Shown here: one piece after another, positions 7,444 to 59,461 of the stretch
How positions within the stretch are numbered: the first letter of the stretch is position 1
Layout of the letters: every line of letters begins with the position of its first letter
Source of the DNA: Octopus vulgaris
Lineage: Eukaryota
DNA length: 64,000 nt
Direction of reading: 5' to 3'
NCBI GenBank assembly: GCA_951406725.2
Contig: OX597823.1
Coordinates: 52,886,001 to 52,950,000, forward strand
Made by a program: the position numbers and the translations under genes
The notes under the pieces: model-generated
What the model was told of the DNA's origin: nothing
The model's database searches: none
What the model saw: only the letters and a program-made list of their open reading frames with translations

Positions 7444-10400
7444 TCTCTTATGATAAAAGGCAGATTTTCTCTGCCTGTTCCCATGTTCCTTTTTAATACA
7501 ATTCTACAATATAGAATTTTTTCAATTGGAATTTACCTATGATTTTTCCAAGTAGATTCGATTGGGTCATGGCATGTAAAGTTTTTTCAATTTGACCCCC
7601 AATTAAGCAAAAATTCGAGAAAACTCAATATTTTACGATTTGCCTCTCTCATTTCAAGTGCTTCACTCCTTCCATTACCACCACACTTTCTCCTACTTTC
7701 TCTTTGCAAGTGTGCAACAATTAAAGTGAAAGTATTTATATAACAGGGATGAACCATTAATACTGGTCATCCTTTTTGCTAGAGGAAGATACGCTATGGT
7801 TTTATATGCTACACCACTGGTTTTCAATTCATATTAATCAAATTAATATTCAATTTTTCACCCTTATTATGTGTGTGTGTGTGTGTATTAGCAATTCGTA
7901 AATTAAAAGGTTTGTTGTTATATTATTACTGTGACTTGTAATCATTTGTTGGTTCCTCGTCAGGGAAACGTTGTTGTGTTGCATTTGTTAAATAATTGTA
8001 AACCGTAACCCTACCCCTTTCGGAGAAGGGGCTTTGGTTATTGCTTAAAAATTGAATTGTGTCCCTGTTTGGGGAAATTGACAATATTTTCACCGTCTTT
8101 ACGGAAGCATTTTTGTTAAAATGCCTTCGATAGAAGAAAGTCCAAAAATGAATTTCGCTGCAGCCGTACACTTCTATACAAGAGGGAGGACAAGATCCAA
8201 TTGATCGAAATTGCAAAGACAGGCCTACAATTCCAGTCTGTTATATATTTTGAGTATTGTTATCACTAGCGATATCAAGATATAACTTTGTATTTTGTAT
8301 TTTATGTGTAGATGTATATATATATATAGATGTACATGTAATATGTACACATATATATATATACATATATACATGCATAATATATCTACCCCTACACACA
8401 TACGCACACACATACATACATAGGGGCAGGTGTGGCTGTGTGGTAACAAACTACGTTCGAAGATACTGTACTTGATATGGGCGGTAGTGCCTTGCCGGTC
8501 TATGGCCTACCTTCAACAAACCGGGAAGGCACAAACACTCTGTTTTCACATTTGCTGCGTGAGACATGTTTTAATGTTGACGAGCTTGCCGAGTACATAG
8601 CCGACAATGAGCCAAAGCTCCTTCCAGAACAGAAGTTCACTTACAACTCCGTTGTTAATTCAGTCCGGGCCAAAGCTGGGGAGATTTTTTTCCTGGACGC
8701 TCCTGGGGGCACTGGGAAAACTTTTGTCAACAAATTAATATTGGCTGAGATTAGGCGAACACAAGGCACTGCCCTAGCTACGACATCATCTGGAATTGCG
8801 GCTACTTTGTTGCCAGGCGGCAGGAGAGCTCACTCCACTTTCAAGCTCCTGCTTCTCTTAGCGAAGACTGAGACACCAACTTGCAACATCAGTAACAGCT
8901 CCGATCACACAGAAGTCTTCAGACGATGCAAGCTTATCGTTTGGGATGAATGCACGATGGCCCACAGAGGTGCTCTTGAGGCACTAGATAGATCTCTCAG
9001 AGACATCAAACACTCTTCAGCTCCCATGGGAGGCATAACACTTCTTCTTTCAGGGGACTTCCGACAAACACTTTCCGTTATTCCCAAAGGGACTAGAGCT
9101 GATGCAGTAAGTGCGTGTCTTAAGTCATCCACATTGTGGCCACTGGTGAAGACTCTCAAACTTCACACCAATATGCGTGCTCATATGCGACGTGATATCA
9201 CATCAGCAGCATTTTCTCACACCCTCCATGCACTTGGCGAAGGAAAAATACCAGGGGATGAAAATGGTAATATTGCCATCGATTCCATTTGTACCATTGT
9301 TAAAACGCCTTCTGATCTCAGAGATGCAGTGTTCCCAGATCTACAAGCTAATTATCAGAATATGGATTGGATTGGCCAAAGGGCTATTCTGGCCCCGAGG
9401 AATAAAACTGTTCACCATATTAATGATGAAATGCTAAAACTCATTCCTGGGGATGTCTATGTATATAAGTCTATCGATACAACTCCTGACCCAGAGGACG
9501 TCATCAACTATCCAATTGAGGTACTCAATTCCTTTGAGCCTCCCGGACTACCACCACACTTTCTCAAACTTAAAGTTGGTGCCCCTATAATGCTCATTAG
9601 AAATTTGTTTCCCCCAAAACAATGCAATGGCACACGTTTGATCGTTAAGTCCTTATCTCCCCATCTGATTGAGGCCACCATTATCACAGGGTGCGGTCGA
9701 GGCAACGTTGTGCTCATTCCTAGGATGCATCTTTTCCCGTCAGAAGCAGACCTACCTTTCATATTTCGGAGGTCCCAGTTCCCAGTAAGGCCATGTTTCG
9801 CAATGTCAATTAACAAAGCGCAGGGTCAAACACTGTCTGTGGCGGGAATACATTTGGGAGAGCCATGTTTCTCTAATGGTCAGCTTTATGTTGCCTGCTC
9901 GCGTGTCGGCAGCAACAGTGATGCTTTCGCATTCGTTCCACAACGAAAAACAAAAAACATTGTGTATAAGGAGGTTTTATAGGATTACTATGTTTCATCA
10001 TTTTCGAACACGTTACTATTTCACTTACATACGACTCTCTTTTATGATGGCATTTACATTTTTAGGCGTTTCATGACATTAATTCACACTTAACCAACAC
10101 CTGTCCTTCGCTCACCTCTATTTCTATCCATTCATCATCAAACCACCGACCTCATCTTCTATATCCAACGTACATGACACATCTACACTCTCACTGTTAA
10201 AGTTTACATAAGCGACAACACGATCGCAACATAAACTTTGGAAACTAAGCAACAGATCATTTTATACAACAACCAATTTACTCATAACGCCCATCAATGA
10301 AAACATCTCTACCACTGTGTTGTGATTCATCTATTCAGCACCACTACAGTCTTGCCAGTCTGACATATGGTGAGTAGATGCTATTGTTCTATATTTTATA

Positions 10401-14979: not shown

Positions 14980-17089
14980 AGATGATAATAGAAAGGGAAT
15001 CCAACAAGATCTAGAAAAGTCGTACATGAAAGAATTTGAAATGGTGAAGACACGCCAGATTCAGAAGTTTATGAAACTCAAATGTCAGAGAGTGAAGACT
15101 GAAGACCGTCACCCACCTGTGAAAGCAGTAATTAATGTAAGTAGCCGACATCTAGAAAGCTCTGAAGAAGCAGTACTAAACAAAGGCCTCAACTTTGCGA
15201 CAACCATCAAACGCATTCCATATATGGACATAATAGTCCCTATTGAAGAGATAGCCGTAAAGATACTAAAAGCTCAGGGAGACTAACTAAGGTGGAAAGT
15301 GAGACAGGTACCAGAAAAAGCGAAACTTCCCAAACCAAACATCACTAAGGAAAAAAAGTTCGCTATCAAAAGACGACAGAGTGACAATTCCATCATAATA
15401 CTTGCAGCGGAGAAGGGAAATGCTACAGTGGTGATGAACAAGTCTGACTACTCGGAAAAATTGGCAAGTCTTGTAGGTGATGGTAGCTACAGCAAAGTAA
15501 AGAAAGGCCTAACTCTGAAAACAGAGAGGAAGATGTCACAGATCTTGATCATGAACACGGATCACTTTACACCAATGAAGTACAGACAACTGACTACAGT
15601 AAACTACCGCACATGTACCGTCTCCTTAAGATTCACAAGGATGGTATTCCATTAAGACCTATAGTTAGCTGCATGTCATCCACTGAGCCGCTTCCTTGTG
15701 GATATAATCAGTCCATTAGCAGGAAAGTCAACATCGTACGTGAAGAATTCCACCCACTTCACAGAATTGATCAAGGATACCCCCATTGAATCCAACCAGA
15801 TGGTGAGTCTGTTCACCAAAGTCCCAACTGGTGAAGCACTATCGGTGATTCAAGAAAAACTAGTGACAGGCACCCATCTAAAAGAACGCACTAGTATACC
15901 AATAAGAAACTTGATGGACATGTTAACCTTCTGTGTAGAAACTACCAACTTCAGTATGGACACTGATATATATATCGACAAGAAGAAGGTTTAGCTATGG
16001 GTTCGCCATTATCACCGATAATAGCCAATATATACATCGAATACTTTGAGAATTTGGTTTTAGGATCAACACCACTAAAACCAACCTTATAGCGGCGATA
16101 TGTTGATGACACCTTTATACTCTGGTCGCACCAGGAAGATGTCCAAGTGCTGTTAAATCATGTGAACTCAATAAAGCCATCTATACAAGTTCATAATCGA
16201 AAAGGAAAAAGATAATCAGCTAGCATTCCTGGACGTATTAATAGCACGCACCAAGTATGGATTCAGGATATCCGTATACAGCAAGCCGACCTTCACTGGA
16301 CGATTCCTCAACTTCAATTCCCACCATCTATACAGTGTAAAGAGAAGGATTGCTCAGTGCCTAAAACATCGAGCAAAGAATATAAGTATCGATCATGATG
16401 CACACCATGAAGAAATTATCAAACTCAGTAACAATCTGTTAAGTAACAACTAATCCAAAAACATACTATCTACTCCAATTATGAAGAAAAGAGAGGATGA
16501 AACCAATAAACTGTCCACAGTCTGTCTACCCTATGTGAAAGGCCTATCTGAAAAGATACAAAAGATATGCGGACCATATGACATCATGACAGTATTCAAG
16601 AATAATATAACACTTCGCAGATATCTCCTTCGAGTAAAACCACCAATAGAAGAGAATATGATCAAAAGCTGCGTGTACTCCATCCCATGCAGCTGTGGTA
16701 GGTTATAAAAAGGTGAAACATGCTGCCCCCTCAAAATAAGGGCAGAGGAACATCGCAAAGCTGTGACACTAGGAGATAGTGATAAATCGGGTATAGCTGA
16801 TCATGTATGGAAGAATGGAGACCACCTCCCCCTGTAGGATGAAGTTAAAATAATAGACAGAGAACACCACTGGAAAATACGAAAATTAAAGGAAGCAGCA
16901 CATATGCTAGGACACAACAACTTCCTAAGCAGACCGAGTGCAGATATGAATAGCATATGGGAACCGGTATTAAGGAAGGATAAAGAAATATTAGATTTAT
17001 AAACGCTAAAATTCACTCCATAATTGCCCACATGCATATGGCGTAGTGGTTAAGAGCGCGGTTACTAACCCCAAGATTCCTGAATAATG

Positions 17090-17143
<54 letters not shown>

Positions 17144-17288
17144 TCGAAAAATACCTTAGGAATGAGAACCAAGGTTCGAAATTTATCCAAGACACTTGAT
17201 GAAGGCTGGAGGGTATATCAGCCGAAACGTTGTGCTAACAACACACAAGATGAGGACAAATATCCGGCAAATGTAAATAATGTAAACA
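14978..17288 (+). mobile_element. Penelope-like retroelement (RT + GIY-YIG), decayed, with 3' pLTR carrying tRNA-like head and hammerhead
   Basis: VLNKGLNFA, IIILAAEKGNATVVM, SLFTKVP, GLAMGSPLSPIIANIY, RYVDDTF, LPYVKGLSEKI, CVYSIPCSCG..GET, KLKEAAH; multiple stops and frameshifts. Confidence 0.9.
17191..17236 (+). ncRNA. Minimal type-I hammerhead ribozyme, family 1 (core C3>T)
   Basis: gacac-TTGATGA-A-GGCTG-gagggtatat-CAGCC-GAAA-CG-TT-gtgct. Confidence 0.7.
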
Positions 17289-17320
17289 ATAATAATAATA
17301 ATTATTATTATTATTATCGA

Positions 17321-22140: not shown

Positions 22141-22813
22141 TTATGATTTTACAAAAATAAAAGGCTATTGTTAAGCGAGACCAACACTGAGTACTTTCAC
22201 TTTGAGTTACGTCACTTGAATATTATTTACTTCTGTTCGTCACTTACTTTCTGTTTAACTGAAAACGATATATCGAAACAGATATAGAATTCTATTTACT
22301 GTTAGTTATTCACAAACTACCTGTTTAAAATTATTATTTTTCCTAACTTTAAGACAGCAAGCCAGCATCAAAAGCTGAGAGTTTTGCGGTTTTTTTTTTG
22401 GTTACTTTGTTTTGTATTCAAACCGCACCGACCTCGACTTTATCTTTCAGTTTACTAGTGCTAACATAAATATGCACTAATAGAAAGTGAAATATATTCT
22501 GTCAAGTCTTCTCATTCTCCAAGACTTGAGAAGTGTAGCTAATACTATACGTGCAAATTTAAAATCCATGAGCTTTTTCAGAGGTAATGTGTGATAAATG
22601 AGCGTACCATTAGTGATAGATGACCATTGGTCGACTGGAAACAAGTATTAGGCACATTCATCGTACCTAATGCACCTAATATTCAAGAGTAAACAAGGGA
22701 TCATTACAGCAATGTTTCTCATTCATTTTTTTTTTACCTATAGGTCCCTTTAATTCCTAATTTACTCGGATTGGTCCTCCTTGCCATTCGATTCTTAGAA
22801 AATCCTACTATAC

Positions 22814-22951
22814 ATTATTTAGATTTGACGGATATTTGTCTTCATCTTGTTTGTTGTTAGCACAACGTTTCGGCTGATATACCCTCCAGCCTTCATCAGG
22901 TGTCTTGGAGAAATTTCGAACTTGGGTTCTCATTCCTAAGGTATTTTTCGA

Positions 22952-22982
<31 letters not shown>

Positions 22983-23083
22983 GTTATTATCATTATTATT
23001 ATTATTCAGGTCACTGCATGGAATCGAACTCGGAATCTTGGGGTTAGTAGCCCGCGCTCTTAACCACTACGCCATTTGCTCTG
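22814..23083 (-). mobile_element. 270-bp tRNA-headed, hammerhead-containing element (Penelope pLTR-derived SINE / retrozyme-like) with 14-bp TSD
   Basis: TSD aaatcctactatac at 22800-22813 and 23084-23097; A box tggcgtagtgg; B box gttcgattcc; (AAT)n; HHR; matches 17035-17283. Confidence 0.85.
22860..22904 (-). ncRNA. Minimal type-I hammerhead ribozyme, family 1, intact core
   Basis: gacac-CTGATGA-A-GGCTG-loop-CAGCC-GAAA-CG-TT-gtgc. Confidence 0.8.
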
Positions 23084-23204
23084 AAATCCTACTATACTTT
23101 TATAATTAAATATTATTAGGAATTGTATTTAAAAAGCTGCTAAATTATTTTGTTTACTTTAGAACTATAACCAATTCATTGCACATAAATTTTATCAACA
23201 AAAT

Positions 23205-27716: not shown

Positions 27717-28314
27717 CATACACACAAACTTACTCACACACACATATTAGAGTTACGTAAGATGGGTTTTACAATAGTTTTCGTCTACTAAATTCATTCA
27801 CAGAGCATTGTTTGGGCCAGGTGATATGGTACAAAAAAACTTGCTCATGATGCTGTGCAGTGTCACTGAACCTAATCCTACGTGGTTGCAAGGCCAGGTT
27901 TTTTTTTAACACACAGGCATTCTTATGCTTATATACACATTACGCAGGCATAGAAAAAGATGAATATAAACATAAATATATACATTACATTACAGAATAT
28001 ATGTAAATATAAGATATATAAAAGTATATATATATATTGCGTACATATAAATACATACATAAATATATATATATATTATATATATATGTATATTATAAAT
28101 ATATATATATATAATATATATATATACATACAATATATATACATATATATACACACAAAAATATATATATGTATATATATTGTATATATATGTATATATA
28201 TATATATATATACACATATATATATAAACATATATATAATATATACAGAGGTAGAGACAGACAGACAGACAGACAGACAGGCAGAGAAAGAGACTGACAG
28301 ACAGACATACAGAG

Positions 28315-28367
<53 letters not shown>

Positions 28368-28511
28368 TACATACATATAGACATATATTGTATATATCTA
28401 ATTAGACATGTTTATATGTATATATATTGTATATATATCTACATTAGATAAATAGATATTATATATATTGTGTATATAATATATATATATACATATATAT
28501 ATCTTGTGCGT

Positions 28512-28557
<46 letters not shown>

Positions 28558-28639
28558 TGCTTGTGTATATATATATAATACCTATTTATCAATATATTGG
28601 ATTTGGTAGATGGAAACTGAAAGAAGCCCGTCGTACCCC

Positions 28640-32170
<3,531 letters not shown>

Positions 32171-32174
32171 TATG

Positions 32175-32231
<57 letters not shown>

Positions 32232-32293
32232 ACTATATACTATATATATTGTAATATACCAGACAGCTATAATTATAAGAAATATATATACTT

Positions 32294-32370
<77 letters not shown>

Positions 32371-32697
32371 TATAAGCGTCGATTTTAAATATCTTTGATA
32401 TATATGTATACATATATATTTCTACAATTATGTTTATACATATATATGTCTACATACATATTCATATAATATAATATGTTTTATGTAATGAATGATCTTT
32501 AGATATTATAGATATGTATATTTTACATACTATACACATGGAAGATATGCTATATTGTATATGTACCATACATATCTTATATAAATATATTCAGTATGTG
32601 TCTATATATTTATAGATATGTGTATATATATATATGTATATATGTGCACATATATATGCATATACAATCACATATATATACATATAAATATATGCAT

Positions 32698-32754
<57 letters not shown>

Positions 32755-38833: not shown

Positions 38834-38890
<57 letters not shown>

Positions 38891-38903
38891 CAAAAACCTG
38901 AGT

Positions 38904-39590
38904 ATGGCATGGATATACTACAGGAAAGCGTATGACAGTGTCCCACATAAATGGATACTCAAGGCCCTTGAGATATACAAGATCTCTCCTGTCGTCTCAA
39001 AATTCTTAGAGAATAGCATGACCATGTGGAACACACGTCTCTTTTTAAGCCATAGTAATGGGATGAGCCAGTCCAACAGCATCAACATCAAACGAGGCAT
39101 CTTTCAAGGTGACTCCCTCTCTCCATTACTTTTTTGCATGGCACTGATCCCACTCTCAAACGAATTGGATAGTACTAGATATGGGTACAAAGTTTTTAGT
39201 AAATTAATAAACCATCTTTTCTATATGGACGACCTAAAGCTGTTTGCCAGGAATGACCAAGAGCTAGAAGGGCTGCTAACAACTGTTAAAGAGTTTAGCA
39301 ATGATATCGGAATGGATTTTGGCCTTGATAAGTGTGCTAAAGCAACTTTTGTAAGAGGCAAGCTCAGGCAAACAGCTTCTGTTAAATTAGATATTGACAC
39401 TACCATCAAGGAACTTGACCCACAGGAAAGTTACAAATACCTAGGAATCAACGAAGGAGATGGTATACATCATGCTACTATGAAGGAAAAAATAAGAAAG
39501 GAATACTATAGGAGAATAAGGCTTGTACTGAAGACTGAGCTCAACTCCAAAATTGCATTGAGGCCATTAACACCCTGGCACTTCCAGTAG
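38904..39590 (+). CDS. RT domain of R4/Dong-like LINE (partial)
   Basis: KAYDSVPH, RGIFQGDSLSPLLF, HLFYMDDLKLF, FGLDKC, YKYLG. Confidence 0.88.
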   Translation: MAWIYYRKAYDSVPHKWILKALEIYKISPVVSKFLENSMTMWNTRLFLSHSNGMSQSNSINIKRGIFQGDSLSPLLFCMALIPLSNELDSTRYGYKVFSKLINHLFYMDDLKLFARNDQELEGLLTTVKEFSNDIGMDFGLDKCAKATFVRGKLRQTASVKLDIDTTIKELDPQESYKYLGINEGDGIHHATMKEKIRKEYYRRIRLVLKTELNSKIALRPLTPWHFQ

Positions 39591-39679
39591 TCCAGTACAG
39601 TTTTAATATCATTAACTGGAACCTTACGGAACTCCAACGCTTAGACAGGAAGACAAGAAAGTTACTGTCATCCAGGAGC

Positions 39680-40852
39680 ATGCACCACCCTAAGGCAGAT
39701 GTAGACCGCTTGTACCTACCTAGAAGCAGCGGGGGGAGAGGAATGATGCAATTAGAGCTGTGCTATAAGACCTCTACTGTAGGAATGAACAGGTACCTAT
39801 CTAGTACAAAGGACTGGATGCTGCGACTTGTGCGCGAACACGAAAGCAACAAAAAGCTGCATTCTATTGTCAAGGAAGCTTATAAGTTCGAAAGGGAACT
39901 AGACATTAACCTTGAATCAGATGAAGAGCCGGAAACCACTGCTACCAAGCAAGCAAAGCGAATCAAGCAGACTGCAAAAAAGAACGGGCAGAATCAAATT
40001 GAGAGGCGGTGGAGCCAGAAGCCCCTGCATGGACAATATATTCTCCGAAGCCAAAATGCTGATGTAGACCAAGCAACAACCCATCAGTGGCTGAAGAGCT
40101 CTGGATTGAAAGCAGAGACTGAAGGTTTCATAATGGCAGCACAAGATCAAAGCTTGTTTACCAGAAATTACCAGGCTAACGTTCTCCGAAACGGTACTGA
40201 CCCTAAATGCAGATTCTGCGACACATTTGACGAAACGATAGACCATCTCGTTTCGGGATGTCCTGTGCTGACACCAAACGAATACAAAAATCGCCACGAT
40301 AGGGTAGGACAGTATATACATTGGAAGATATGTAAACACTACAAATCCGACACTCCTGCTAACTGGTACGAACACCATCCTCAGCCAGTTGTTGAAGGTA
40401 AAGATGTCACCATCCTCTGGGATTTTCCAGTCAACACTGACAGAACGATCAAGGCTAATCGACCAGACATAATTGTTAAGGACAGGGAAGAAAATACCTG
40501 CAGACTAATAGAAGTAAGCGTCCCCACTGATAAAAATGTATCTGTCAAGGAATTTGACAAACTTAGTAAATATAAGGACCTGGAAATCGAAATACAGAGG
40601 ATGTGGAATCTTAAAACAAAAACTGTTCCTGTTATTGTAGGTGCCCTAGGTATGATAAAAAAGGGATGTCAGAAACACCTAGACAATATCCCTGGAAAAC
40701 CATGTCTCAAGGAAATCCAAAAGATTGTGCTAACAAGTACTGCCCACATCCTTAGAAAACCCTATCAATGTAAATGTCTGTGTTTGCATTACATGGAGAT
40801 ATATCTCTACTTCCCCTCCCCAAGCTTTCAGCTGTATTTCAACAACTCTTAA
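39680..40852 (+). CDS. Thumb, zinc knuckle and RLE endonuclease of R4/Dong-like LINE
   Basis: DVDRLYLPRSSGGRG, AAQDQ, CRFC..ETIDHLVSGC, RHD, RPDIIV..IEVSVP, KYKDL; the true stop is probably near 40772 after a 1-nt shift. Confidence 0.88.
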   Translation: MHHPKADVDRLYLPRSSGGRGMMQLELCYKTSTVGMNRYLSSTKDWMLRLVREHESNKKLHSIVKEAYKFERELDINLESDEEPETTATKQAKRIKQTAKKNGQNQIERRWSQKPLHGQYILRSQNADVDQATTHQWLKSSGLKAETEGFIMAAQDQSLFTRNYQANVLRNGTDPKCRFCDTFDETIDHLVSGCPVLTPNEYKNRHDRVGQYIHWKICKHYKSDTPANWYEHHPQPVVEGKDVTILWDFPVNTDRTIKANRPDIIVKDREENTCRLIEVSVPTDKNVSVKEFDKLSKYKDLEIEIQRMWNLKTKTVPVIVGALGMIKKGCQKHLDNIPGKPCLKEIQKIVLTSTAHILRKPYQCKCLCLHYMEIYLYFPSPSFQLYFNNS

Positions 40853-40951
40853 CCTTCACTTGCCCTAGGGCGCTGGGTGTGCCCCGGCAGGTGATTGCAT
40901 CAAACATGCAGATTAAAAGTAAATGACAATGATAATAATAATAATAATAAT

Positions 40952-42574
40952 ACTCGTTTTCTCCGTTACTTTTTGTAATTGCACTAATACCCATAACAAC
41001 GACACTAAGGAAAGTTAAAATGGGTTACCGCTGTAGAAAGAATGGCTCATCATTGAACCATCTTCTGCTTATGGGTGACCTGAAATTGTTTTGGAAATCT
41101 GAAAAACAGATAGATTCCTTATCCAAAACAGTTCAGAAGTGTGGTAGGGACATCGGTATGGAAATTGGGATTATCAACTGCTCAGTAGTTAATATCAAAA
41201 GAGGGAAGAAAGCAGCCTGCAGAGGCTTGCGCTTACCACCAGGAGAGACCATGGGTGAACCCAACTGTAGTGGGTATAGATATTTAGGGGTTTTGGAGCT
41301 GGATAACATTCTACACAGAGAAATGAAAGTCAAGGTCAGCGAGGCGTATCAAAAAAGGGTGAAAATGGTGTTGAAATCCAACCTCAATGTCAAAAGTTTG
41401 ATTACCGCAATGAATATCTGGGCAGTTGCGGTGGTCAGATATAGTGCATCCATCCTCAAATGAACTAGGGAGGAAATATCAACAATGTGTAGGACGAGAA
41501 AGCTGATAACGCTGCATGGGGTGCTACACATTAAAGCAAACGTAAACAGACTGTATATGAAAAGAAAGAATAGTGGTAGAGGACTAATTAGTATAGACCG
41601 TTGTATAAGGAGTGAAAGGAGAACGTTTGCTGAGTATTTGATAAATAGTGATGAAAACCTGCTGCAACATGCCGCGTAAGATATGGGTGTAGATGCAGAT
41701 GAAATGATGGGCAAAGAGGAGTTTAACCAAAGAGCTGAAGAGAAGAGAAAAGAAGACCTTGAAATGAGAAAGCATGGACAGTTTGAAAGGAATACAAAAG
41801 ACGTTAAGGATAATACAGCATCGTGGGTATAACTTGAGCGAGATGATTTGAAGCATATCACCGAAAGCCTGATCATTGCTGCACAAGACCAGGCTCTCGC
41901 TACCATCTCAGTGAAGTATAACATATATAAAACTTCTGACACCCAGAAATGCAGACTCTGTGGAAAGAGCGTGGAAAACGTGACCCACTTGGGAAGTGGA
42001 TGTGAGAGTCTTGCACAAAAAGAATACAAGTGTCACCAGGATAAAGTGTGTGTATCTTCATTGGCTCTTGTGCCGTAAATACGAATATTAAGTATCAGAG
42101 AACTGGTATGAGCATGTACCAAGTAAAGTTATGCAGGAGGATGGAAAAGTAACGATACTCTGGGGCTATGATTTTCAGACGGATCGTGTAATCGAACACC
42201 GTCAGCCGGATATTATCACACTGAAGAGAGATAAATACTGTCAGATCACTCATGTGGCCATATCAAATGACCCGAATGTTGTGAGTAAAGAGGTTGAAAA
42301 AAATCACCAAGTACTCCGAATTGAAAGTGGAAATGGCAAGACTGTATGGAATGTGAGAGAGTAATGTAAAAGTGATACCAGTGGTGATCGGAGCGTTGGG
42401 CTCAATCCCACTGAAACTTCAAAACTTCTTAAGGCAACTGGAAATACCATGAAAGCAGACTTATTGGGCACAGCGCACATCTTAAGGAAAGTATTATCTG
42501 TCTGAGGTCCTTGTTGTGACTTGACATATGATTAAAGACTCCGCTGCATTTTTACCTACACTGTGTTACGAAGA

Positions 42575-58118: not shown

Positions 58119-58992
58119 ATATTGTTATTTTTGAATTCATTTCCAGACACATTTTCAAAAAAAAAGCTTTAATATTTCTCGATGCTTCAATTTACGTTTT
58201 AAATATAAAGATACATTTTATAAGTTTATTTAACTTCTCAAGTAAAAAAGAATTAAAAACTATACTGCAAAATCATACCTGTCGTTGATAACAGTTGAAC
58301 TTGATTTGGTAAAGGTAGATTTATAGCAGGAAGTAATTCTTAGTAATTTTTAGCAATTAGAGGTATGATCATCTGCTGGTCCTTCAATCCCATCGTAGAA
58401 ACCTGAGATCAAGGAAAATTATTACTTAGCATTAGTTCGGGTCATATTTATTTAAGATAATCGACAAATAAATATATCCTTAAGAAATATAAAACTGCAA
58501 TAGCGAAGTCAAAAGAGCAGAAAAGGTTATCGAATCGACTCAACTAAAAAGAGAATAAAAACTATAGTATAAATATACAAACAAACTATCACTCTTCATA
58601 TAGCGAAAAGAAAAAGTTATAATTAAAATGTAAGGGTAGACCAGCACGTGGGAACAGCCAAGAGAAAAAGATAAATGAAATGAGCTTACGCCTAAGAGAT
58701 GTGTTGGGACAAATTGACTCAAAGTACGAGTCGAATTTGAGTTGTTTATGTGCTAAAGTCAATTCTTAATAATTTATATCCTTAAGATCCTAAGGTGTTT
58801 CTGTTGACGATATATTGTTACAAAGTGTTTCAATAGTTTTTCGTATAAGAGAATGTTTAGTTTGCTTAGCCATGTTTCATTTTCTTCAACATCTTTATGA
58901 TCTCTGTTGTCGCCAATGAGAATTTCTCCATTATTGATATTATTTACATTATTTGCATTCGACGGATATTTGTCCTCATCTTGTTTGTTGTT

Positions 58993-59038
58993 AACACAAC
59001 GTTTCGGCTGATATACCCTCCAGCCTTCTTCAGGTGTC
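58993..59038 (-). ncRNA. Minimal hammerhead ribozyme, family 1
   Basis: gacac-CTGAAGA-A-GGCTG-loop-CAGCC-GAAA-CG-TT-gtgtt. Confidence 0.8.
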
Positions 59039-59091
59039 TTGGAGAAATTTCGAACCTTAGGAATGAGAACCCAGGTTCGAAATTTCCTCAA

Positions 59092-59137
59092 GACACCTGA
59101 AGAAGGCTGGAGGGTATATCAGCCGAAACGTTGTGTT
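59092..59137 (+). ncRNA. Minimal hammerhead ribozyme, family 1
   Basis: gacac-CTGAAGA-A-GGCTG-loop-CAGCC-GAAA-CG-TT-gtgtt; 5-bp stem I including one G.U. Confidence 0.8.
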
Positions 59138-59461
59138 AACAAAAAACAAGATGAGGACAAATATCCGTCGAATGTGAATAATGTAAATAATGTAAATAAT
59201 GTACATAATTCCTCATCTCTTAAAATATATAACTCAGAATTTCTCCGCTATTTTTTCTTTCGGTAACACTTAATGTCCAGGGTTACCTCTGATGTCTGTT
59301 TATCAGGTTCTTGCGCCGTCTTCTTTGACATCTATTTCGCCTGTCTTCTTTCTGAAATATATAATGAAAATCACATATCTCGAACCCTTTAAAATCTTAT
59401 TCTACGAGCACTTTGTCCAGAACTGTTTTTGTCTTTTCTTTTTCAAGCATTGCCTACACTG

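Follow-up and report, generated by a model that had tools for sequence, protein, structure and literature searches.

Penelope-like elements (PLEs) of the Penelope/Poseidon type have one open reading frame (ORF) for a reverse transcriptase (RT) with a GIY-YIG-type region, which starts inside a pseudo-LTR (pLTR) that also carries a minimal hammerhead. They occur as partial tandems, with 5′ inversions, two 3′ ends 30–40 nt apart and many solo hammerheads (PMC11167929; PMC4209133). Minimal hammerheads, like solo motifs, are usual in PLEs (PMC4209133), and an optional tail and inverted pLTRs are also among their features (PMC8557442). The protein of the Anolis element PAc/Poseidon cuts and extends both target strands, initiates cDNA synthesis at two internal sites within the beginning of the ORF, and requires the first 172 nt of the ORF; cleavage by the hammerhead is dispensable (PMC11167929).

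The Schistosoma elements Sm-alpha and Sj-alpha are short tRNA-derived repeats that carry a hammerhead, but they are SINE-like with canonical hammerheads, and the accessible text names no coding element with the same head (PMC2770079). Metazoan non-LTR retrozymes are short, have a type-I hammerhead and are kin to PLE pLTRs (PMC7761336; bioRxiv 2026.07.22.740005); they form head-to-tail tandem arrays that yield circles, and tRNA is not mentioned in the accessible part of the preprint. The TRIMp3 elements (Cassandra, Helenus, Ajax) have a Pol III promoter derived from a small RNA within the terminal repeat, but these are non-autonomous LTR elements, and the autonomous partners of LTR elements with tRNA or 5S promoters are said to require Pol II (PMC10886601). 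A SINE, as defined in SINEBase, is shorter than 700 bp and non-coding, with a tRNA-derived internal promoter and transcription by Pol III (PMC3531059).

Octopus has the SINEs OK, OR1 and OR2, which are tRNA-derived and similar in size to the unit analyzed here. Ohshima and Okada reportedly traced OR1 and OR2 to a tRNA-Arg in 1994. Both are CORE-SINEs (PMC4758252; PMC4824008), whereas the body of our unit consists of AAT repeats and the start of a PLE ORF, a distinction made by description only. Identity with OR2, suggested by its size, was rejected by description on the CORE-SINE label.

We have analyzed a Penelope family of Octopus vulgaris. Unlike the pLTR of other Penelope/Poseidon PLEs, that of the Octopus family has a head with tRNA-derived A and B boxes, about 80% of its head-bearing copies share one 5′ edge, and its sense strand is free of T4 runs; the clade label is a presumptive one, taken from motifs. 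In contrast to TRIMp3 elements the head sits in a coding PLE, and unlike retrozymes the copies are single or head-to-head. Judged by its sequence, this is a Penelope-like element with tRNA-derived promoter sequence in its pLTR, the solo pLTRs of which mimic a SINE. No report of a tRNA-headed Penelope was found in the literature searched, which comprised neither subscription journals nor the repeat libraries (Repbase, Dfam, SINEBase and the octopus library) that may hold the family.

A hammerhead unit with a tRNA-derived head

The window is a stretch of 64,000 nt of contig OX597823.1 (positions 52,886,001 to 52,950,000, forward strand). The original prediction placed in it a Penelope-mobilized, Pol III-driven hammerhead SINE, a discrete minus-strand unit bounded by a perfect 14-bp target site duplication (TSD). 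Such a unit is present at 22811–23081, with aaatcctactatac at both flanks; the probability of such a pair of identical 14-mers arising by chance near both ends of the unit is ~1e-5. The A box, B box, (AAT)n tract, hammerhead core and tail all lie where they had been placed, and the 5′ end of the copy corresponds to approximately +1 to +3 of the tRNA. Position +1 is the first base of the aligned tRNA, and all positions in the family are counted from it. The features of the window copy and of its relatives in the window are as follows.

22800–22813: TSD, 3′ side, containing the first T4 run downstream of the A box, at 22802
22811–22858, minus strand: tail of ~50 nt, which stops at unit position +238, the first of two family 3′ end-points; its final 3 nt overlap the TSD
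22859–22904, minus strand: minimal type-I hammerhead, with stem I, CUGAUGA+A, a 6-bp stem II and GAAACGUU with the AACGUU palindrome; predicted cut after 22864
22931–22933, minus strand: ATG in frame with the consensus 835-aa Penelope ORF, the 3′ half of the unit being the start of the ORF
22954–23006, minus strand: (AAT)n tract, highly variable in length between copies and a site of later insertions
23009–23081, minus strand: head of the Penelope pLTR, derived from tRNA-Arg(ACG), its tRNA stems decayed
23020–23029, minus strand: B box, read in the sequence as GTTCGATTCC
23064–23074, minus strand: A box, read in the sequence as TGGCGTAGTGG
23084–23097: TSD, 5′ side, 14 bp, the same letters as 22800–22813
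14980–17031, plus strand: coding body of the Penelope family, 5′-truncated and decayed, corresponding to unit positions 571–2652; 93.8% identical to the consensus, with RT and a GIY-YIG-type region at the C terminus
17034–17290, plus strand: 3′ pLTR of the coding copy, comprising a head with its B box deleted, AAT, hammerhead and tail
58939–59234: head-less head-to-head pair of hammerhead/tail arms, ending at +244 and +268

The consensus head aligned with a genomic tRNA-Arg(ACG) (L343) from the first base of the tRNA, with 50 of 73 nt identical (z ~9 against shuffled sequences). The runner-up among 30 other tRNA loci, which covered some isotypes only, was Arg(TCG). This alignment, with both boxes legible in the sequence, bears out the tRNA origin and the intact A and B boxes that had been proposed, and the A box matches the established consensus of type-2 Pol III promoters. 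ARAGORN and Rfam called neither a tRNA nor a hammerhead in the window unit, and the head folded no better than shuffled sequences (z 0.6). Elsewhere in the genome, 23 matches to the core of tRNA-Arg(ACG) are clustered in tandem within 20 kb (G000:C2:211887730–211907125).

The hammerhead had been called intact. All of its elements are there (on the minus strand, CTGATGA at 22899–22893 and GAAACGTT at 22871–22864), in the architecture of its relatives and of the minimal hammerheads of PLEs (PMC4209133), but stem I is weakened by a T>C change. The resulting 3′ strand of stem I, GTGCT, is found in 6 copies against 128 with GTGTT (the six commonest variants being counted), and the minimum free energy (MFE) fold of the window copy is not a hammerhead, whereas a consensus-like copy folds into one. 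Within the hammerhead core the commonest variant is at position 7 (19 vs 156). The MFE structure of the cofolded dimer is not a hammerhead dimer, and the palindrome duplex is calculated at −3.5 kcal/mol.

The label retrozyme-like fails on arrangement. A second hammerhead on the same strand within 700 nt was found at 1 of 92 anchor loci (defined below), and in view of this absence of tandem arrays the copies are not retrozymes as defined in bioRxiv 2026.07.22.740005. The retention of sequence 3′ of the cut site, which had been read as implying an uncleaved monomer template, is ordinary for PLEs (PMC11167929). The window copy is without an optional extension of 31 nt at the 3′ end, which is present in about half of the family. 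If transcribed by Pol III, it would give an RNA of ~285 nt, in view of the T4 run at 22802.

The pseudo-LTR of a coding Penelope element

The unit had also been matched to the 3′ end of the coding Penelope in the window. This match is confirmed, with 87.7% identity at 17034–17284, but it is not confined to the tail: the entire unit takes part in it, tRNA head as well. The family consensus is a unit of 2,652 nt in the order head, (AAT)n, ATG, hammerhead, tail, ORF, stop, head. Its ORF of 835 aa starts from an ATG at +116, ahead of the hammerhead and within the 270-bp unit, and stops 30 nt ahead of the next head. A query comprising the last 330 nt of the window Penelope ORF and the start of the head gave 3,606 candidates, of which 30 loci were examined. 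In all 30 the end of the ORF is followed by the head, and in 26 by hammerhead and tail as well. In long copies the pLTR repeat also precedes the ORF; one of these is a full unit (L272) and another has a tandem junction (L325). Because the head is present in all 30 ORF-end loci and the repeat also lies ahead of the ORF in long copies, the entire 270-bp unit, with its head, constitutes the pseudo-LTR of a Penelope-like element that codes for protein. Other marks of a PLE pLTR are present as well, namely an RT ORF in partial tandem, a minimal type-I hammerhead, an optional tail of 30–40 nt and 5′ inversions.

A Pfam search of fragments of the window gave no match; two relatives of the Penelope protein (P0001 and P0008) carry RVT_1. 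The C-terminal region is, by its motif, putatively of GIY-YIG type, and the element presumably belongs to the Penelope/Poseidon clade, given its motifs and the contrast with a second, zinc-finger-bearing family. Across 579 aa, P0001, which is encoded on an ENA contig, shares 75% identity with the consensus of the family, and represents either a close relative in another animal or a horizontal transfer. No relative was found in viral contigs. Words of the element are present in sequencing runs of five organism labels (A–E), in shares of up to 0.36, and the element may predate several species. The ORF-linked copies L092–L096 (G000:C1:7.9–9.05 Mb) have 7–9 private variants in common and are likely segmental duplications.

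Ends and divergence of the copies

The genome searched comprised 2.8 Gb in 227 contigs. Exact 20-mers were found 919 times just upstream of the head, 4,372 times in the head, 8,740 times in the hammerhead and 90 times just past the tail. Our anchors were taken from the top of the list of 4,372 matches to the head, and comprise the first 92, at 90 loci on contig C1 and from one chromosome arm; 17 extend upstream into the end of the ORF and 75 are solo. The 5′ ends of the solos, the distribution of which the original prediction had proposed to map, form a sharp peak at the tRNA head: 54 fall at −8 to +9 (12 of them at −7), 19 lie deeper in the head and 2 upstream, between −9 and −30. ORF-linked copies (the first 30 loci of 20-mer matches upstream of the head, with one duplicate pair removed) truncate smoothly, with 5′ ends from −29 to beyond −1500 and a median of ~−430. 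Copies are lost at ~3.5% per nt over the head against ~0.2% upstream, an approximately 20-fold difference. The solos have several traits of a SINE, being non-coding and shorter than 700 bp, with tRNA-derived internal promoter sequence and a discrete 5′ end at the tRNA start, and they will be miscalled as SINEs in annotation.

Five copies extend beyond the ORF start to include head sequence. Four of these (L272, L271, L340 and L335) stop at +1, +4, +5 and ~+4, respectively, and the fifth, L325, is tandem. Since four of five ORF-bearing copies stop at the start of the head, the long, ORF-bearing template likely begins there too. For a perfect fold-back junction at −7 the genome gave 1,135 strand matches, against 651 for native read-through junctions; this corresponds to ~650 fold-back sites, as estimated from the first 100 of the 1,135 matches. 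The same junction occurs in reads of organism C, with 328–399 loose-ended reads per run.

At the 3′ side, 67 of 82 measurable ends fall at +236–245 or +263–280, two points 31 nt apart, and at the 10 anchors that have no tail unrelated sequence follows the head or the AAT tract. A 5′ inverted arm is present in 51 of 75 solos, and a short arm is paired with a long one in 33 of 36 inverted insertions (35 of 38 anchors, as two of the insertions are represented twice). A TSD of at least 9 nt was found in 4 of 21 testable non-inverted solos, and is thus the minority state. The two 3′ end-points and the 5′ inversions support the proposal that the unit was mobilized by the Penelope machinery. The tail ends 153 nt past the ATG in the Octopus family, compared with the 172 nt needed in Anolis, so by analogy solos would be without part of the binding site. 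Since they have no ORF sequence past the tail, we predict that most of them are dead ends.

A two-component system with a distinct SINE, as originally envisaged, is not supported: the head is fixed in the autonomous element, ORF-bearing copies start there, and no solo lineage was seen. None of 219 sites distinguished solo from ORF-linked pLTRs (minimum p 0.004, above the Bonferroni level). Shared derived variants averaged 0.26 in solo pairs and 0.34 in solo–linked pairs, with a maximum of 3 in 1,830 solo pairs, and G64A, the sole common non-CpG variant of the head, was found in solos and ORF-linked copies alike. A SINE forming its own non-autonomous lineage was therefore not observed among 61–75 solos, although small lineages would escape a sample of 92 anchors.

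The solos are the younger copies, with a divergence of 3.9% (n = 61) against 5.7% for ORF-linked pLTRs (n = 15, p 0.04; n = 29, p 0.0002); confined to the tail, the test gave p 0.009 overall and p 0.12 for like-ascertained copies. This leaves room for SINE-like spread, and either such spread or a late, solo-only master would explain the difference. Both boxes are retained in 31 of 61 solos. Boxes and hammerhead core are no more conserved than their surroundings (divergence 5.0% for the A box, 3.2% for the B box and 5.3% for the rest of the head; 5.5% for the core and 4.3% for the rest), as expected of dead copies.

Transcription and origin of the solo copies

Intact A and B boxes persist within a decayed tRNA fold, with the A box 13–14 nt downstream of the 5′ edge. 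No T4 run occurs in the 2,652 nt of the sense strand, where codon-aware nulls expect 2.9–5.1 (p 0.027, 0.002 and 0.002); under Markov nulls the absence is not significant (p 0.07 and 0.22), and G4 runs are likewise absent from the unit. Decayed copies of the family have 34 T4 runs in 75.3 kb (0.45 per kb), and the corresponding figures for 25 related PLE ORFs, taken from 80 metagenome loci, are 92 and 28.6 kb (3.2 per kb); 3 of these 25 control ORFs, including the intact 2.3-kb ORF of L352, are without any. An A/B-box pattern, which fits the Octopus head by inspection, was found downstream of the ORF at none of 41 control loci with at least 200 nt there. The second, head-less PLE family of the genome has 6 T4 runs in 2,889 nt and no B box. 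The relatives L350–L352, examined by eye, have CCAAT and TATA in a long 3′ UTR, a UTR that is absent from the Octopus family. In Octopus a TATA-like TTTATAAG, located 28 nt upstream of the 5′ edge, fits Pol II equally. RNA-seq of organism C (three raw runs, ~6% of each, and one contig set) had equal depth on both strands, climbing toward the 3′ end as does genomic copy number, with three weak start piles, none of them at the head. If solos arise as by-products of the element, as set out below, these sequence features make transcription by Pol III the likelier choice over Pol II; it is counted against Pol III that an uncapped RNA must still give the 835-aa protein.

We put at about even the chances that the window copy is a solo pLTR of a coding PLE with a tRNA-Arg head, made by the element's own RT on an RNA whose start likely lies, with Pol III as the probable polymerase, 6–7 nt upstream of the head. 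By analogy with Anolis Poseidon (PMC11167929), the Penelope protein would bind its RNA at the junction of pLTR and ORF and start reverse transcription at two internal sites. In an RNA initiated at the head this junction would always be close to the 5′ end, and initiation there would copy just 240–270 nt until the template ended, giving copies of SINE size. ORF-bearing copies would need a rarer tandem template, and their truncation would be random. Inversions might arise where the small hairpin at −7 let the cDNA end fold back, or where both target strands were primed. The hammerhead, of the usual PLE type, would be uncut in the template or re-ligated. The thousands of short copies that begin at the head suggest that the element likely sheds SINE-like copies of its own end and serves no separate SINE. 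The need for the binding site is here borrowed from a lizard element, and a single shared source would not predict younger solos.

Pol II might instead feed this by-product route, starting from the TATA-like box that lies at the stop codon of the ORF; the head and (AAT)n would then be a passenger, a former small SINE inserted just behind the start site. The position of the box 28 nt upstream of the edge would suit this, as would the TATA boxes upstream of the hammerhead in related pLTRs and the transcription starts inside the pLTR of D. virilis Penelope and of Chlamys (PMC8557442); a capped RNA removes the translation problem, the intact boxes are possibly a SINE inheritance, and AAT runs also end other local repeats. 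We nevertheless consider it unlikely, given that the box reads TATAAG in 36 copies and TATAAA in 5, with no CCAAT seen upstream, that the sense strand is T4-free, and that no TSD surrounds head plus AAT. An independent SINE with this head is also missing among the 92 anchors, the 10 tail-less ones having unrelated downstream sequence.

It is rather improbable that solos are a self-propagating Pol III SINE, in which solo or 3′-pLTR copies would be transcribed to the next T run, with the Penelope protein copying them again in trans. Diagnostic sites, shared derived variants and shared 3′ flanks were not seen in the copies compared, about half of the arms have the 31-nt extension that short-ended solos cannot template, and the Anolis protein requires ORF sequence past the tail (PMC11167929). 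On the other side stand the sharp 5′ edge, the ~4:1 excess of solos over ORF-linked copies and their younger age, the retention of both boxes in half of them, the T4 immediately after the TSD of the window copy, and the existence of non-autonomous PLE derivatives (PMC8557442; bioRxiv 2026.07.22.740005). Finally, the edge might be an RT stop or fold-back site in a long read-through RNA that does not start at the head, owing to the TGCCC-AC-GGGCA hairpin or residual tRNA structure. No other single junction is as common as the perfect fold-back on this hairpin, and 19 of 75 solos stop within the head; but many ends at −6 to +9 are not fold-backs, just 2 of 75 lie between −9 and −30, the head has no more structure than shuffled sequence, and a 5-bp stem would hardly halt four in five cDNAs. 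We regard this last reading as very unlikely.

Returning to solos as by-products of an RNA begun at the head, the fuller proposal is of a coding retrotransposon run by Pol III, in which the Pol II promoter would have been swapped for a tRNA-Arg one and T4 purged from the 2.65-kb unit, with cap-free translation and thousands of solo pLTRs; this we hold only tentatively, and think it somewhat doubtful. A coding Penelope with tRNA promoter sequence and no T4 provides a direct test of the rule that autonomous retrotransposons need Pol II, which PMC10886601 states for the partners of elements with a Pol III promoter. It would also offer a route to SINE-like elements without a chimera step and, if the Pol III reading is true, a SINE born inside its own mobilizer. 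In vitro, the making of PLE insertions has been examined for a single element to date; the family adds a large genomic record of it, with copies in the thousands, a 5′ end of the template that is fixed, short arms paired with long ones and a defined fold-back point.

The second PLE family of the genome is very young, with 99.4% identity between two copies (L321, at G000:C8:57974800–57981300, and L322). It has an intact ORF with a zinc-finger-like GIY-YIG region, a pLTR of ~450 bp, a hammerhead of CUGUUGA type and a pyrimidine-rich sense strand, and is present in at least 19 open-frame copies. Other repeats were seen in the window. A decayed non-LTR element with RT-like frames lies at 38889–41460 (plus strand) and resembles, we presume, Dong/R4; similar sequence follows the AAT tract at two loci of the Penelope family (L090 and L124). 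An open frame of 511 aa with a PIF1-like helicase P-loop at 8447–9979 (plus strand) is probably a piece of a Helitron. A degenerate tandem array occupies 27970–32703, with a repeat of ~1.7 kb and shorter sub-repeats.
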